Shown: one piece after another, positions 21,749 through 30,634 of the stretch
Numbering within the stretch: position 1 is the stretch's first letter
Layout: the number at the start of each line of letters is the position of its first letter
Origin: Escherichia coli
GTDB taxonomy: Bacteria > Pseudomonadota > Gammaproteobacteria > Enterobacterales > Enterobacteriaceae
Assembly (NCBI RefSeq): GCF_003790525.1
Contig: NZ_CP033635.1
Strand: one strand, 5' to 3'
DNA length: 64,000 bases
Made by a program: the position numbers and the translations under genes
The notes under the pieces: model-generated
Database searches by the model: none
Seen by the model: the letters and a program-made list of their open reading frames with translations, nothing else
What the model was told of the DNA's origin: nothing

Positions 21749-23044
21749 ATGGCTATCAAATCACCTCCCGGACTTATTCCTTTATCACACTTATCGGGTG
21801 AGGAACTCCTGGCCCACCTGCGCTTTAACCGGGTTACCGATGAAAAAGGACGTTATCTGCCTTTTGATGAGTTGCAGTACCGCATCAAAAAAGGAGAAAA
21901 CGTCGATGTGGCGTGGACGCTTACCCGTCTGGCGCGCAACGCGGCGATCCAACGAATTAATTATTGCAATGAAGCGGGTGAACAGGCCGGATTCAACATT
22001 ACCCCGGTGATTGCAGAAGCGTGCGAGCTTGTCGACAAACGTGCTACCGCGCTGGCGCTGAAAGATCAGACTGAACGGTTACGCGGGGCCGGAGCCGAGT
22101 TAAGCCAGTTACGCCTGGAAGAGCCGATCACCAGCTCCCAGCTGGAGGGTGCGAATACTACAACGCTGGTGGCGAGAAAAATGCTGGAAACAGGGCGGTC
22201 GCCACGCACTGAAGACGAGCATATGATTGCGGGAAATGCCCGGCTGATGGCGGAAATTCCGCACTTACTCGCAGAACCGCTGACACCTGCGCTTATTCGC
22301 CAGTTACATGCCATTGGTATGGGTGGAATCAATGACGCGAAATATCGTCCGGGAGAATTTCGTGAAACAGATGATGTTGTGATCGCCGACTATGATGGCA
22401 ATATAGTGCATCAACCGCCCGCTGCGGCATTGTTACCGGAACGGCTGGAAAAAGTTTGCCAGTGGTTAAACAGCCATGAAGGGTATATTCATCCGTTGGT
22501 CCGTGCCTGCATTCTGCATTTTATGCTGGCCCATGAACATCCGTTTCGGGATGGCAACGGGCGCACCAGTCGGGCGCTGTTTTACTGGTATATGCTGAAA
22601 TCGGGCTACGATGTCTTTAAATATATTTCCATCAGCCGTTTGCTTCATGCTGCACCGGTCAAATATGCCGCCAGCTACCAGTACACTGAATCAGATGGTA
22701 TGGATCTGACTTATTTCCTTGAATATCAGGCGGGTGTCATTAAACGTGCTCTGCAAAACTGGCAGCAGCATATCGATGAAATTACACAACGAAGCGCAAA
22801 ACTCGATAGTGTGCTGTTTAGCTCTGGTGTGCTTAAACGCCTGAATCCGCGCCAGGTAACGCTCCTGAATGTGATGCTCGCCAATCCGGGGAAAGAGTAC
22901 ACAGTTGCTGAAATTAGCGCGAGCCTGGGCGTCTCTGATAATACGGCTCGAGCTGATTTACGGACAATTGTTAAAGAAGGGTTTGCGCAAGAGAAGAAAA
23001 TTAATGACCAGCAAGCCGTGTACTTCGCGCATTATCCGCTGTAA
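21749..23044 (+). CDS. Fic-domain protein (putative AMP-transferase) with N-terminal inhibitory motif and C-terminal HTH-like tail
   Basis: 431-aa ORF with ATG start; Fic motif [12 protein letters not shown] at nt 22538-22573; upstream SSQLEG matches the (S/T)xxxE(G/N) inhibitory motif; C-terminal segment [30 protein letters not shown] is HTH-like. Confidence 0.8.
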
Positions 23045-24690: not shown

Positions 24691-24721
24691 TATAAGAAGC
24701 TGGTCGCATTGGGTATTCATT

Positions 24722-24803
24722 GCCTGATGCGACGCTTACGCGTCTTATCATGCCTACGGGGACCTGACCGTAGGCCGGATAAGGCGTACACGCCGCATCC
24801 GGC
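24722..24803. repeat. REP/BIME elements downstream of aldB
   Basis: gcctgatgcgacgc... and ...gccggataaggcgtacacgccgcatccggc REP-type palindromes. Confidence 0.7.
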
Positions 24804-25233
24804 ATAAACAAAGCGCACGTTGTTACAATTTACGTTTTAAATCTACGTGCGCAATAACCCAGACTACGCCAACAGAAGTGCGTTTCTGGGGCGTGTTTTG
24901 CCAGGAGTTTAATCTCGCGTTTCGATGGTGAGCGGGCGAACCAGGCCATAAATCACCATTGGCGTTCCGAGGCCAATCAGCAATAAACGGTAGATAATTG
25001 AAGGTTTAATACGCTTAATCTGCATTGTGGATGTTTTACGGTTTTTATTCATAAATTTGGTCAATAGTTACATTATTTCAATATGATAAGCTTCGACCTA
25101 TTGAAAAGCCAGGCACACACTTCAGAAAGTATATAAAAAACCATATGTCGTTATATAAATAAGGAAATTGCACCGCATTATGGTATTTCATAATATGCGT
25201 TAATTGTTCTTTTTTATATTCTCTGAGGGAAAT

Positions 25234-25557
25234 ATGTTCCTGGATTATTTTGCACTGGGAGTGCTTATTTTTGTATTTCTGGTGATCTTCTATGGGATTA
25301 TTATTTTACATGATATTCCCTACCTGATTGCTAAAAAACGTAATCATCCACATGCCGACGCCATTCATGTTGCTGGTTGGGTAAGTCTTTTTACGTTACA
25401 TGTTATCTGGCCATTTTTGTGGATTTGGGCCACGCTTTACCGCCCGGAGCGTGGATGGGGAATGCAAAACCATGACTCCTCCGTTGTGCAACTACAACAG
25501 CGTATTGCCGGGCTGGAGAAACAGCTCGCTGACATCAAATCCTCTTCTGCCGAGTAA
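25234..25557 (+). CDS. yiaW: small inner-membrane protein, DUF3302 family
   Basis: 107-aa product from ATG at 25234 (track start 25204 is TTG); gaggga RBS; close paralog of the yibI product. Confidence 0.85.
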
Positions 25558-25562
25558 TACTT

Positions 25563-26699
25563 ATGGATTTACTGATTATTTTAACCTATGTGGCTTTCGC
25601 ATGGGCAATGTTTAAGATCTTTAAAATTCCTGTAAATAAATGGACCATTCCCACAGCGGCCCTGGGAGGCATATTTATTGTCAGCGGTCTAATTCTGTTA
25701 ATGAACTATAACCATCCGTATACCTTTAAAGCGCAAAAAGCGGTTATTTCTATTCCTGTTGTCCCACAGGTGACAGGCGTGGTGATCGAAGTGACGGACA
25801 AGAAAAATACGCTGATTAAAAAAGGTGAGGTGCTATTTCGACTGGACCCGACGCGTTATCAGGCGCGGGTGGATCGGCTGATGGCGGATATCGTTACCGC
25901 AGAACATAAACAGCGGGCGTTGGGCGCAGAGTTAGATGAGATGGCGGCGAATACTCAGCAGGCAAAGGCCACGCGGGATAAATTCGCTAAAGAGTATCAG
26001 CGTTACGCACGCGGCAGTCAGGCGAAAGTAAACCCGTTTTCAGAACGCGATATCGATGTGGCGCGGCAAAATTATCTGGCGCAGGAAGCCTCCGTGAAGT
26101 CATCGGCGGCGGAACAAAAACAGATCCTGAGCCAGCTGGATAGCCTGGTGTTGGGTGAACATTCTCAAATCGCCAGCCTGAAAGCGCAGCTCGCGGAAGC
26201 AAAATATAACCTTGAGCAGACGATAGTGCGTGCGCCGAGCGATGGTTATGTGACCCAGGTACTGATTCGTCCGGGTACCTATGCCGCGTCGCTGCCGCTA
26301 CGTCCGGTGATGGTGTTTATACCCGATCAGAAACGACAAATCGTGGCGCAGTTCCGTCAGAACTCCTTGCTGCGACTGGCTCCTGGCGACGATGCGGAAG
26401 TGGTGTTTAATGCTCTGCCAGGTAAGGTATTCAGCGGTAAGCTGGCAGCCATTAGTCCAGCCGTTCCCGGCGGAGCTTATCAGTCGACCGGCACCTTACA
26501 GACGTTAAACACAGCGCCGGGTTCAGATGGCGTTATCGCGACCATTGAACTGGATGAGCATACTGATTTGAGCGCATTACCAGACGGTATTTACGCCCAG
26601 GTGGCGGTCTACTCTGATCATTTCAGCCATGTCTCGGTGATGCGCAAAGTACTGTTACGCATGACCAGCTGGGTGCATTACCTTTATCTCGATCATTAA
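25563..26699 (+). CDS. yiaV: HlyD-family membrane fusion-like protein
   Basis: 378-aa ORF; close paralog of the yibH product, same length. Confidence 0.88.
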
Positions 26700-27670
26700 T
26701 CTTCGCTTTCCGCCGCTTGTTCAGGCCGCAGTTGCTGCGACTGAGCAAGCTGGTGGCGAATTTCACGCAGCATTTCATCCAGCACATACTGGACCCGCCA
26801 GGGCTGGTATTCCCGTTTACGGAAGATAGCCACCAGATCCAGCCACCATTCATACGGGTGCTGAAAGCAGGGCACCAGCGTGCCGTCTTGCAGGTCGCTC
26901 TGCACACTTTTGTCTGGCGCAAACACAATCCCCAGGTGATTTCGTGCCAGCTCCAGCGCAGATTGCGTGTTGTCGCAAACGTAATTTCCCTTCACGCGAT
27001 AATCCCGCACCTCTTTACTCCCGGCGACGTTGAAGCGCCAGATATTCGCGTCGTCGATCATCATCGAGTCGATCAAAATACAGGAGTGATGTTCGAGTTC
27101 GTCAGGACGGCTAATGGGATGTTTCTCAAGATAGCGCTGGCTGGCATAAGCGGTTACGGCATATTGGGTAATAAAACTGGCAACCAGCGATTCATCTTTT
27201 GGTTGGGCGTAGCTGATTAAAACATCACAATCATCGGGAAATTCGACGCCTTCATAAAAGGCATTACGCTCAAGATTGCAGGTTTTTAGCGATAAGGTGA
27301 TATCACCGATATCTTTAATTTTATCGATTACATGTTTGGATAAATAGGTAATTATGCCGGTTGGTGCATAGATAGTGACCCGACCACGTTTCTCATGCTT
27401 ATAATCTGCAATAAAATTATTAAGCTGCTCGTTTCTGTCCAGCATGTCGTTGATGTACGGTAACAGCACGGTGCCAAAAGGTGTGAGCATCAGCTGTCGG
27501 GTGGTTCGGTCAAAGACTTTTAAACCCACTTTTGATTCAAAATCAGCAAGATATTTGCTGACGTTGGCCTGTGCGATGCCAAGTACAGTCGCGGCATGGC
27601 TGATATTTTCACTGGCAGCGATTACCGAGATAATTTTTAACTCCCGGTACTTAAGTTGTAATTTTGTCAT
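26696..27670 (-). CDS. yiaU: LysR-family transcriptional regulator
   Basis: 324-aa ORF; N-terminal LysR-type HTH; stop codon overlaps the yiaV stop. Confidence 0.88.
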
Positions 27671-27793
27671 CGCAACAGCCCAATTATATATAATTTTATA
27701 TATTACTATATAAATATGAATCTTGCACCGGAGAAATTGTAAGCATTACTATGCCGACTCTTTTTTATCTTATTTTAAAATGGAATACCGGAC

Positions 27794-28534
27794 ATGTTAA
27801 TTAACCGCAATATTGTGGCGTTATTTGCGTTGCCTTTTATGGCAAGCGCAACTGCTTCTGAATTATCCATTGGTGCTGGTGCGGCTTATAATGAATCGCC
27901 TTATCGCGGTTATAATGAAAATACAAATGCAATTCCGCTGATTAGTTATGAAGGTGATTCTTTTTATGTTCGTCAGACCACGTTAGGTTTTATTCTGTCG
28001 CAAAGTGAAAAAAATGAACTTAGCCTGACCGCATCCTGGATGCCGCTGGAATTTGACCCTGCCGATAATGACGATTATGCCATGCAACAGCTTGATAAGC
28101 GTGATAGTACGGCTATGGCGGGGGTTGCCTGGTATCACCACGAGCGTTGGGGAACCGTGAAAGCCTCTGCGGCTGCGGACGTTCTGGATAACAGCAACGG
28201 CTGGGTGGGTGAGCTATCGGTATTCCACAAAATGCAGATAGGTCGCCTGTCGCTGACACCTGCGCTGGGCGTTCTCTATTATGACGAGAATTTCAGTGAC
28301 TATTACTATGGCATTTCAGAGAGTGAGTCCCGTCGTAGCGGTCTGGCAAGTTATTCCGCGCAGGATGCCTGGGTGCCCTATGTCAGCCTGACGGCAAAAT
28401 ACCCGATAGGAGAGCACGTCGTATTGATGGCGAGCGCCGGATACAGCGAGCTGCCGGAAGAGATTACCGACAGCCCGATGGTTGATCGTAATGAGAGTTT
28501 TACCTTTGTCACCGGCGTGAGCTGGCGTTTTTAA
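27794..28534 (+). CDS. yiaT: MipA/OmpV-family outer membrane protein
   Basis: 246-aa ORF with signal peptide; C-terminal ...VSWRF aromatic end typical of an OM beta-barrel. Confidence 0.85.
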   Translation: MLINRNIVALFALPFMASATASELSIGAGAAYNESPYRGYNENTNAIPLISYEGDSFYVRQTTLGFILSQSEKNELSLTASWMPLEFDPADNDDYAMQQLDKRDSTAMAGVAWYHHERWGTVKASAAADVLDNSNGWVGELSVFHKMQIGRLSLTPALGVLYYDENFSDYYYGISESESRRSGLASYSAQDAWVPYVSLTAKYPIGEHVVLMASAGYSELPEEITDSPMVDRNESFTFVTGVSWRF

Positions 28535-28548
28535 TTCACCGGTGGATG

Positions 28549-28666
28549 TCGGTGCGGCTGGCCTACGTTCTCGCACCGACTCGTGGGCCTGATAAGACGC
28601 GTTAAGCGCCGCATCAGGCAATGTGCACCCTACGGTGGATGCGGCGCGAGCGCCTTATCCAACCTA
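28549..28666. repeat. REP/BIME cluster between yiaT and the GH127 gene
   Basis: Palindrome gtcggtgcgg...ccgcaccgac plus REP-type units gcctgataagacgcgttaagcgccgcatcaggc and gatgcggcgcgagcgccttatcc. Confidence 0.65.
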
Positions 28667-30634
28667 CGGATGGCAATGCTTTTCCTCATTCACCCAGATC
28701 CGCATTTCGCCTTCACCCCGGTTAGCCCAGCTAAACCACGGGATAAATGTCAGAGTTTGCGGCTGGCGTTTGGCTGGGGCATAGTCGTAATGCCACAGCG
28801 GTTGCTGCTCTGGATTGCTCTGTTCATACCGGTAACCCGGTGCCTGGATTAAGATCTTATGGCGGAACAATCCCTTGCCTTCAAATGTCGTAAATGGCGC
28901 ATCGGCGGGCAGCCACAGGTTATGCAGTGACTCGCCGTTGTCGGCCTGTTCCAGGCAATACACCAGCGGGCCGCGCTGAATCGCCACTTTTCCGGCGACG
29001 TGACGCACCAGCGGGTTACCGTAAACGCGACGTACCGGCATTGGCAACGTCAGATTCAGCGTGTCGCCCTCCTGCCATTCGCGGGTAATGTGCAAATACC
29101 CTTTACGAATATCCTGCTCGACCTCTTCCCCATTCAATGTAATCTGCGGCTGTGTGCACCAGTCCGGCAGACGTAAAGCCAGCGTATGACGCACCGGCTG
29201 GGGCGATTCAACCGCAATTGTCACCTGTTCCTGCCACGGATAGTTTCCGCTAACCCGCAGGCGCAACGTGCCATTTTCTACCGGCACTTCCATGCTGTTT
29301 CCTGCGTATATGTTGATATACAACGCATCTTCACGCGGCGTGTAGAGATAATGACCAATCGAGGTTAGCACGCGGGCGATATTTGGCGGACAACAAGCGC
29401 AACCAAACCAACGCTGGCGGATCGGCTTAACGTGATCGTAGATATGGTTGAATTTCAGCGATTTTGGATGTACTTCCAGCGGATTCACATAGAAGAAATG
29501 TTTGCCATCCAGCGCCATGCCGCCGAGCACGGTGTTGTACAGTGCGCGCTCCATCACATCGGCATATTGACTGTCGCCTTCCATTTCCAGCATTCGCCGG
29601 GCGAACATCATCAGGCCGATGGAAGCACAGCTTTCGGCGTATACCGTGTCATTCGGCAGATCGTAATCGCTGCTGAACGCTTCACCGCTGCTCTGTGAGC
29701 CAATGCCGCCGGTAATATATAACTGACGCTGGGCCATATTGTTCCACAGCCGCAAGCAATCCTGACGCTTGCTTTCATCGTGACTTAAACGCGCGAGATG
29801 CGCGACGCCGGTCATCAGGTAGACAAAACGTACCGCGTGACCAATGGCGGTTTGCTGCTGTGCGATGGGCAAATGTGCCTGGCTGTAGGCTTTGTCTTTC
29901 ACCATCCACGCCGGGCCGTAGGTGTGCCAGTGCGAGGTCTGCCCGCGCTTTTCATATTCCTGGTCGTAATAGTGCGGTTGCGCACCACGCTGTTCGACAA
30001 AATAGTTCGTCAGCGCCAGGTAGCGCGGCTCTTCGGTCACTTCATACAGGCGCATTAGTGCCAGTTCAATTTCCGGGTGACCAGGATAACCGTGTAACTT
30101 ACTTTCATCTGGACCAAATACGCTGTCGATATGATCGGTCAGACGGCAAACCACTTCCAGCAAGCGCCGCTTGCCCGTAGCCTGGAAGAAGGCGACTCCG
30201 GCTTCAATCAGATGACCCGCGCAGTAAAGTTCATGACACTCCGCCAGATTGCTCCAGCGTTCTTCGGGCGCTTTTACCGTAAAGTAAGTATTGAGATAGC
30301 CATCTTCACACTGGGCGGAGGCGATCAGTTCAATCACCTCGTCGGCGGTTTTTTCCAGTTCGGCGTCCGGCTTCTGGCACAGCGACCAGGCTACCGCTTC
30401 CAGCCATTTGGCGACGTCGCTGTCCTGAAACACCATCCCGTAAAATTCACCGTCTTGCAGTCCTGCGGCAATGCGAAAGTTTTCAATCGCATGGCTGGGT
30501 TCCGCTTCTGGGATACGATCGTTCAAGGCGTCCCACTGATAAGGAATCACCACATCGCGGACCAGTTGTTGGTACTGACCGAGGAACGGATCGCTGACCG
30601 TCAGTTTATGCAGATCGACTTCCGAAATGTTCAT
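28664..30634 (-). CDS. glycoside hydrolase family 127-like protein (DUF1680; putative beta-L-arabinofuranosidase-type)
   Basis: About 656 aa from ATG at 30634 preceded by taaggag; no signal peptide; conserved Cys-rich C-terminal region; family assignment from memory. Confidence 0.6.
   Translation of the reverse strand: MNISEVDLHKLTVSDPFLGQYQQLVRDVVIPYQWDALNDRIPEAEPSHAIENFRIAAGLQDGEFYGMVFQDSDVAKWLEAVAWSLCQKPDAELEKTADEVIELIASAQCEDGYLNTYFTVKAPEERWSNLAECHELYCAGHLIEAGVAFFQATGKRRLLEVVCRLTDHIDSVFGPDESKLHGYPGHPEIELALMRLYEVTEEPRYLALTNYFVEQRGAQPHYYDQEYEKRGQTSHWHTYGPAWMVKDKAYSQAHLPIAQQQTAIGHAVRFVYLMTGVAHLARLSHDESKRQDCLRLWNNMAQRQLYITGGIGSQSSGEAFSSDYDLPNDTVYAESCASIGLMMFARRMLEMEGDSQYADVMERALYNTVLGGMALDGKHFFYVNPLEVHPKSLKFNHIYDHVKPIRQRWFGCACCPPNIARVLTSIGHYLYTPREDALYINIYAGNSMEVPVENGTLRLRVSGNYPWQEQVTIAVESPQPVRHTLALRLPDWCTQPQITLNGEEVEQDIRKGYLHITREWQEGDTLNLTLPMPVRRVYGNPLVRHVAGKVAIQRGPLVYCLEQADNGESLHNLWLPADAPFTTFEGKGLFRHKILIQAPGYRYEQSNPEQQPLWHYDYAPAKRQPQTLTFIPWFSWANRGEGEMRIWVNEEKHCHP

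Follow-up and report, generated by a model that had tools for sequence, protein, structure and literature searches.

The window analysed here, a 64,000-nucleotide stretch of Escherichia coli DNA, contains two gene pairs of the same build. One comprises yibI (positions 2582-2944, plus strand, 120 aa) and yibH (2947-4083, plus strand, 378 aa), the other yiaW (25234-25557, plus strand, 107 aa) and yiaV (25563-26699, plus strand, 378 aa). From its ORF, RefSeq name and Pfam match (PF11742, 147 bits), YiaW was identified as a DUF3302 inner-membrane protein with two predicted transmembrane (TM) helices, and YibI is its paralogue. The ORF of yiaV, its Pfam adaptor domains and an AF2 model of the product point to an EmrA-like membrane fusion protein (MFP, periplasmic adaptor), of which YibH is the paralogue. 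Only 5 bp separate the yiaW stop from the yiaV start, and 2 bp the yibI stop from the yibH start. The pairs share the plus strand at a spacing of 22.6 kb, as a preliminary description of this DNA had estimated (about 22 kb). Identical genes with identical names occur in the RefSeq annotation of E. coli SMS-3-5 (NC_010498.1, around 3.95-4.01 Mb), a 100% match to the reverse complement of the window. Both pairs are already known, annotated E. coli operons and ancient paralogues; as a genome feature they are ordinary.

Convergent with yiaV lies yiaU (26696-27670, minus strand; ORF and RefSeq), which encodes a LysR-type regulator. It is followed by yiaT (27794-28534, plus strand), the last gene of a co-inherited yiaW-yiaV-yiaU-yiaT (yiaWVUT) block, coding for a MipA/OmpV-family outer-membrane protein (RefSeq; Pfam MipA in the Citrobacter orthologue). 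The stop codons of yiaV and yiaU overlap by 4 bp (TTAA, 26696-26699), with an identical 4-bp overlap in C. amalonaticus, and the yiaU-yiaV pair has been described as a convergent excludon in K-12 (PMC12288877). Between aldB and yiaW, within the deletable block, there is an annotated hypothetical ORF of 47 aa with one hydrophobic helix (24909-25052, minus strand); a 104-aa ORF occupies the equivalent place in Citrobacter. In promoter and terminator scans around the block, promoters were not above the shuffled expectation.

The two copies were compared at protein and DNA level. YiaV and YibH, equal in length as previously described (both 378 aa), are identical at 291 of 378 positions (77%) in a gap-free alignment (E = 0), and YiaW and YibI share 74% identity overall (E = 8e-62). 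The near-identity of the small proteins over their first 70 residues, also described before, amounts to 65 identical residues and five differences (93%); their C-terminal tails diverge, and a 13-residue insertion sets the lengths apart. Outside the genes the likeness is lost: flanks of 100 bp are 27-31% identical. Judged from these alignments, the two-gene unit is truly duplicated, far beyond chance, and the account of paralogous, co-oriented pairs of a small membrane protein and a 378-aa HlyD-like protein stands, with the ORFs exactly where it had placed them.

At DNA level the copies are 70% identical, with longest exact runs of 26, 22 and 20 bp, and their third codon positions are 45% identical. 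The Nei-Gojobori pS of the MFP genes is 0.75 (saturated) and lies between 0.72 and 0.86 in each 60-codon window; dN is 0.18 for the MFPs and 0.056 for the DUF3302 core. Gene conversion between the copies was rejected, pS being uniform and saturated, with no conversion tract. Citrobacter and Pseudocitrobacter carry both pairs at the same relative positions (e.g., 8.7 kb apart in C. youngae), and neighbour-joining places the YiaV type in a clade of its own beside the widespread YibH type. These conserved positions, the separate YiaV clade, the low DNA identity and the lack of joined flanks (see below) argue for an ancient and stable duplication; on this comparison of genomes, both pairs have evidently been in place since before the Escherichia-Citrobacter split.

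The preliminary description had suggested that the pairs, as direct repeats, mediate deletion or inversion of the intervening region, with low nucleotide identity set beforehand as the refuting condition; the 70% observed is low, and the idea falls. A composite query, combining a 2-kb stretch of the mtlA flank with one of the yiaU/yiaT flank, was searched against 5,426 complete E. coli genomes and matched 5,425 of them, and in 0 of these 5,425 did the two flanks lie within 2.5 kb of each other. Neither high identity or long identical tracts between the copies nor deletion or hybrid junctions among the strains were found. At about 30% divergence RecA recombination is negligible and mismatch repair blocks it, and recombination between direct repeats leads to deletion or duplication, never to inversion. 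What speaks for such a role is the co-orientation of the pairs at 22.6 kb and a single identical run of 26 bp, roughly as long as the minimal segment that RecBCD recombination reportedly requires (Shen and Huang 1986). Deletion or inversion through these direct repeats is already refuted for natural populations.

The distribution of the two pairs in E. coli deserves separate consideration. The yibI-yibH pair is nearly universal (5,406 of 5,426 genomes), and yiaW-yiaV occurs in 3,805 of the 5,426; a 3.8-kb block with all four genes yiaW-yiaV-yiaU-yiaT (24805-28620) is absent from about 30% of the genomes. A REP element (24769-24804) marks its left edge, as seen from the sequence and a three-way alignment including the empty S14 site, and a second, co-oriented REP element lies on the right (about 28582-28620; sequences and alignment). 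The empty site of strain S14 has a single REP joining the left flank to the right flank, and such a clean empty junction was found in 567 genomes. Where yiaW-yiaV is missing, the whole four-gene block is gone and aldB abuts the GH127 gene; in some genomes hicAB, at times accompanied by a type I restriction gene, replaces the block, and in one the region was lost through IS1. The aldB/GH127 junction (24700-24830 and 28540-28700) is a multi-state site, occupied by yiaWVUT, by a single REP or by hicAB with or without type I restriction, or having lost the GH127 gene too. Since Citrobacter and Pseudocitrobacter carry the same four genes after aldB, with yiaT accompanying yiaWVU in all their loci, presence of the block is taken as ancestral and its absence as a deletion, which probably ran from REP to REP. 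Through this REP-bounded loss, about 30% of strains are natural knock-outs that association studies could use. The earlier picture of the gene surroundings was right in that no pump or outer membrane factor is nearby, but incomplete, as yiaU and yiaT come after yiaV and the four genes are gained and lost together. Structural variation across strains, which had also been at issue, does exist in the form of the yiaWVUT loss and of island turnover beside yibH, but neither involves the paralogues.

Two further stretches of the window are variable. Between yibH and yibF lies a strain-specific 12-kb island of low GC content (4100-16300; 27-48%). It encodes two HTH regulators, fimbriae of the chaperone-usher type (an operon with a PefC/AfrB-type usher at 7109-9466) and an S6-peptidase autotransporter of 1271 aa (12367-16182). 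As yibH is directly followed by yibF-selA-selB in E. coli E69 and most Enterobacteriaceae, this gap is an insertion hot spot. A Fic-family gene between yiaY and aldB (21749-23044), annotated in SMS-3-5 and S14, is missing in GDSC2239PM and C. amalonaticus, in which aldB comes straight after yiaY, and represents another accessory insertion.

YiaW and YibI are full-length members of the DUF3302 family, scoring 147 and 140 bits respectively (cut-off 32) and covering profile positions 1-77. In 1.8 billion proteins, 883 cluster representatives of DUF3302 were found at E ≤ 1e-3, and the core remains 55-90% identical even among 50%-identity cluster representatives. Across 37 diverse members P29, H38, P39, A43, W49, S51, W59, P60 and W65 are invariant. 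Hydropathy and modelling predict, in order, a TM helix, the conserved loop, a second TM helix, a short linker and a C-terminal helix whose L..R...LE..L pattern is heptad-like; in the AF2 model of YiaW, linker-fused with YiaV, the helices span residues 2-26, 41-68 and 80-103. Positive charges sit in the YiaW loop, and some family members have an extra N-terminal helix preceded by Arg/Lys, from which we infer that the conserved loop would face the cytoplasm and the tail the periplasm. In some cluster representatives (P0203, P0180) the DUF3302 core is fused directly to the adaptor C-terminal motif (..LRKARLRMSSWMNYVFLEH), the product expected if an internal deletion had removed the end of the DUF3302 gene together with almost the whole MFP gene; the fusion hints that these two conserved pieces may belong together.

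HlyD/CusB-type adaptor domains were identified by Pfam in YiaV and YibH, with CusB_dom_1, HlyD_D23 and HlyD_3 above cut-offs. The AF2 model of YiaV, built on a 45-sequence alignment (pLDDT 75), shows N-terminal helices at residues 2-19 and 29-49, a hairpin at 97-152/161-218, lipoyl and β-barrel strands and a C-terminal helix at 355-374. Lipoyl and β-barrel domains flanking an α-helical hairpin are the arrangement of HlyD-EmrA type MFPs (TCDB 8.A.1), and the N-terminal anchor consists of two hydrophobic helices, one more than in EmrA. Foldseek searches with the model returned adaptors as all top matches, the best being the EmrA chains of EmrAB-TolC (8zal/8zar, E = 3e-20, TM 0.60-0.65), followed by MacA, AcrA and MexA; EmrA is also the best PDB match by sequence (E = 3e-11). 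Against the NCBIfam models for EmrA/EmrK (TIGR00998) and MdtN (NF007785), YiaV reached 111 bits, far below the cut-offs of 390.8 and 376.

The conservation of the MFPs is concentrated at their ends. Of the 49 invariant columns, 15 fall in residues 1-52 and seven in residues 361-373; they include G35 and G36, the YNHP motif Y49 N50 H51 P52 at the end of the N-terminal TM helices, and R..LLRM..W..Y at 361-373. We read these conserved membrane parts as belonging to a functional membrane domain that would be built from DUF3302 and the MFP together, since an ordinary adaptor anchor is not so conserved. The hairpin varies in length, and some lineages lack as many as about 60 of its residues.

Loci were collected from one genome per species, giving 72 usable DUF3302-MFP pairs, and about 80 loci were mapped. 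In all loci with both genes readable, an MFP gene (331-385 aa) begins 2-10 bp after the DUF3302 gene, an order that holds from Enterobacterales to Aeromonas, Ferrimonas and Rhizobium and likewise in metagenomic contigs, although distant DUF3302 members lie mostly on short contigs that show just the downstream MFP. As these maps and alignments show, the two-gene unit is fixed from Rhizobium to Enterobacterales and evidently under strong purifying selection. The preliminary description had pointed to the lack of a cognate pump or outer membrane factor nearby, and this was confirmed: no ABC, MFS, RND or AaeB-type pump and no TolC-type gene is present near either pair in the window, and no linked pump gene appears in the gene maps of the roughly 80 loci from other genomes. 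Pfam sorted the 123 neighbouring proteins of 23 diverse loci into 116 families, of which LysR was the most frequent (eight loci), and no recurrent transporter was found among them. In one distant branch, and in this lineage only, an OEP gene (TolC family), the DUF3302 gene and the MFP gene follow one another with spacers of 12 bp and 4 bp.

A few individual loci are worth recording. In Aeromonas schubertii (locus L091, 1026-7376) alkyl sulfatase, FadL-like and second HlyD genes precede the DUF3302-MFP pair, a layout that echoes the alkylsulfatase gene yjcS beside ytcA-mdtNOP in K-12. Two Yersinia loci (L006 and L007, 5300-9600) have the pair and a YdgH/BhsA-like gene between prophage integrase/excisionase and RecT-type genes. 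This prophage location looks exceptional, as only two of 2.9 million viral contigs in IMG/VR carry DUF3302. A defence-system or phage-cargo reading, prompted by the Yersinia prophage, was rejected: PADLOC gave only coiled-coil noise (E = 0.005) and PHROGs only unannotated adaptor-like families, and the count of viral contigs is equally adverse. Two records labelled 'Campylobacter phage' (MG065691.1, 169772-170110; MG065686.1, 4013-4351) contain, near the record ends, an unannotated ORF 74.3% identical to YiaW, which is about the YiaW-YibI level; these ORFs are probably E. coli contamination or products of chimeric assembly.

Taken together, our preferred reading, to which we assign a probability of roughly 0.5, is that DUF3302 and the MFP form a self-contained inner-membrane, periplasm-spanning complex that acts as a pump-less conduit or has DUF3302 in the place of the pump. 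The two proteins would assemble via their conserved membrane segments; by analogy with EmrA, the MFP could form a hexameric ring, with about four TM helices per YiaW-YiaV protomer pair, and its α-hairpin of about 56 residues may reach across the periplasm to a TolC-type outer-membrane channel. The outcome would be either a conduit without a pump or an assembly in which DUF3302 and the adaptor helices replace the usual transporter, with export or envelope protection as the likely role. In support of such a complex are the fixed DUF3302-MFP pairing with no pump in cis, the EmrA-like fold of the MFP, the fact that its membrane parts are its most conserved and that the DUF3302 core is equally rigid, and, as the one indirect pointer to docking with a TolC-type channel, the OEP gene in front of the pair in one distant branch. 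Several observations speak against it or fail to support it. Linker-fused modelling of YiaW-YiaV by AF2, on a shallow alignment (17 sequences) and in the wrong stoichiometry (1:1 monomer), brought no gain at the membrane helices, with pLDDT of 44-59 as compared to 59-68 for YiaV alone, and the DUF3302 and MFP alignments contain no conserved membrane-embedded acidic residue of the kind found in proton-coupled small transporters. The OEP adjacency is confined to a single lineage, and both Ferrimonas and the OEP-linked homologue have a much shorter hairpin, so that docking to the outer membrane may not be universal. The MFP could also serve a pump encoded elsewhere, and the published phenotypes are weak and indirect. 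A bolder version, in which DUF3302 and its dedicated EmrA-like adaptor would constitute an unrecognised minimal class of envelope-spanning system, their TM helices replacing an ABC, MFS or RND pump and coupling to a TolC-type channel, we regard as doubtful and put forward tentatively.

Two other explanations of the pair have to be weighed. The MFP might be a conventional adaptor, acting in trans together with TolC and a transporter whose gene lies elsewhere (of MFS, ABC or PET type), the DUF3302 protein being a small accessory subunit with a role like that of AcrZ or AaeX. Its fold and sequence are indeed of the EmrA/MdtN/AaeA type, a small membrane protein, an MFP and a nearby LysR gene reproduce the aaeR/aaeX-aaeA-aaeB layout minus the pump, and in A. 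schubertii a second HlyD gene lies just upstream of the pair. We nevertheless consider this unlikely: linkage of adaptor and pump is the rule in the family, and none of the roughly 80 loci across several orders has a linked pump; conservation in the MFP is highest in the membrane helices, more than a generic anchor would require; and homology of DUF3302 to AaeX (DUF1656), considered as a candidate relationship, was rejected, the hhalign probability of 0.1% indicating that the two are unrelated.

The pair may instead serve as a non-transport scaffold or sensor that spans the envelope and connects the inner membrane with partners in the outer membrane or peptidoglycan, YiaT for instance, within an envelope/LPS programme together with YiaU. 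The latter, for which the name 'LpsR' was proposed, is reported to repress yiaT and to activate the waa LPS-core operon (PMC9068703), and yiaW-yiaV-yiaU-yiaT are inherited and lost as one block. Deletion of yiaW reportedly raises Ca2+-mediated transformation, according to the citing passage in PMC12844161. Outer-membrane β-barrel genes of different families adjoin the pair in Rhizobium, Aeromonadaceae and Aeromonas, but their number is about what chance would give among some 140 genes. Furthermore, neither yiaT nor yiaU adjoins the yibIH copy or most of the homologues from other genera, and yiaV and yiaW are not listed among the YiaU targets (PMC9068703); a scaffold or sensor function appears improbable to us. 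Least credible of all, with hardly any chance of being correct, is the idea that the two pairs, acting as direct repeats, favour loss or inversion of the intervening 22 kb. Genome stability is not endangered by the repeat.

Published observations on these genes are scattered. The preliminary description had called the function of both pairs unknown, in line with the literature, in which no functional study of yiaW, yiaV, yibI or yibH was found. In macrophage-evolved clones yiaW was hit by IS1, with the phenotype not traced to it (PMC5495878). In strain UTI89 yibI is induced in urine, and a mutant had a competitive index of 0.33 and adhered less well (PMC5404293). YiaV is listed as an uncharacterised MFP (TCDB 8.A.1.1.4; PMC10971958), and yibH has been used as a neutral integration site (PMC5852967). 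For the y-ome, the analysis gives two of the last partnerless E. coli adaptors an obligate small partner, DUF3302, and a conserved membrane domain, with no pump in the genomes examined. A YiaW-YiaV complex, with or without TolC, is a concrete and cheap hypothesis, in which an orphan adaptor has DUF3302 for its obligate partner.

Among known systems, EmrA of EmrAB-TolC (PDB 8zal/8zar, 4tko) is closest to YiaV, being the best PDB match in fold as well as in sequence. The two share an inner-membrane anchor, a long α-hairpin and lipoyl and β-barrel domains, and neither has a lipid-anchored membrane-proximal domain. Identity between them is 17-18%, and YiaV differs in having two conserved TM helices, whereas EmrA has one, in its extra conserved C-terminal helix and in lacking an emrB-like partner gene. 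The gene layout resembles that of aaeR/aaeX-aaeA-aaeB (aromatic carboxylic acid efflux) and ytcA-mdtN-mdtO-mdtP, in which the gene of a small membrane protein or lipoprotein also lies directly upstream of an EmrA-class MFP gene; in the aae system a LysR regulator adjoins, like yiaU beside yiaV. YiaV matches MdtN at 29% identity across residues 52-297 and AaeA at 22%, whereas its N-terminal double TM segment and C-terminal 80 residues have no counterpart in either. Neither yiaWV nor yibIH has a gene for an AaeB/MdtO-type pump or an MdtP-type channel, DUF3302 is no AaeX homologue, and no aaeB-like gene was found in the window or in the mapped loci. YiaW and YibI are members of the PF11742 family, to whose description the present analysis adds the obligate pairing with an MFP gene and the set of invariant residues.
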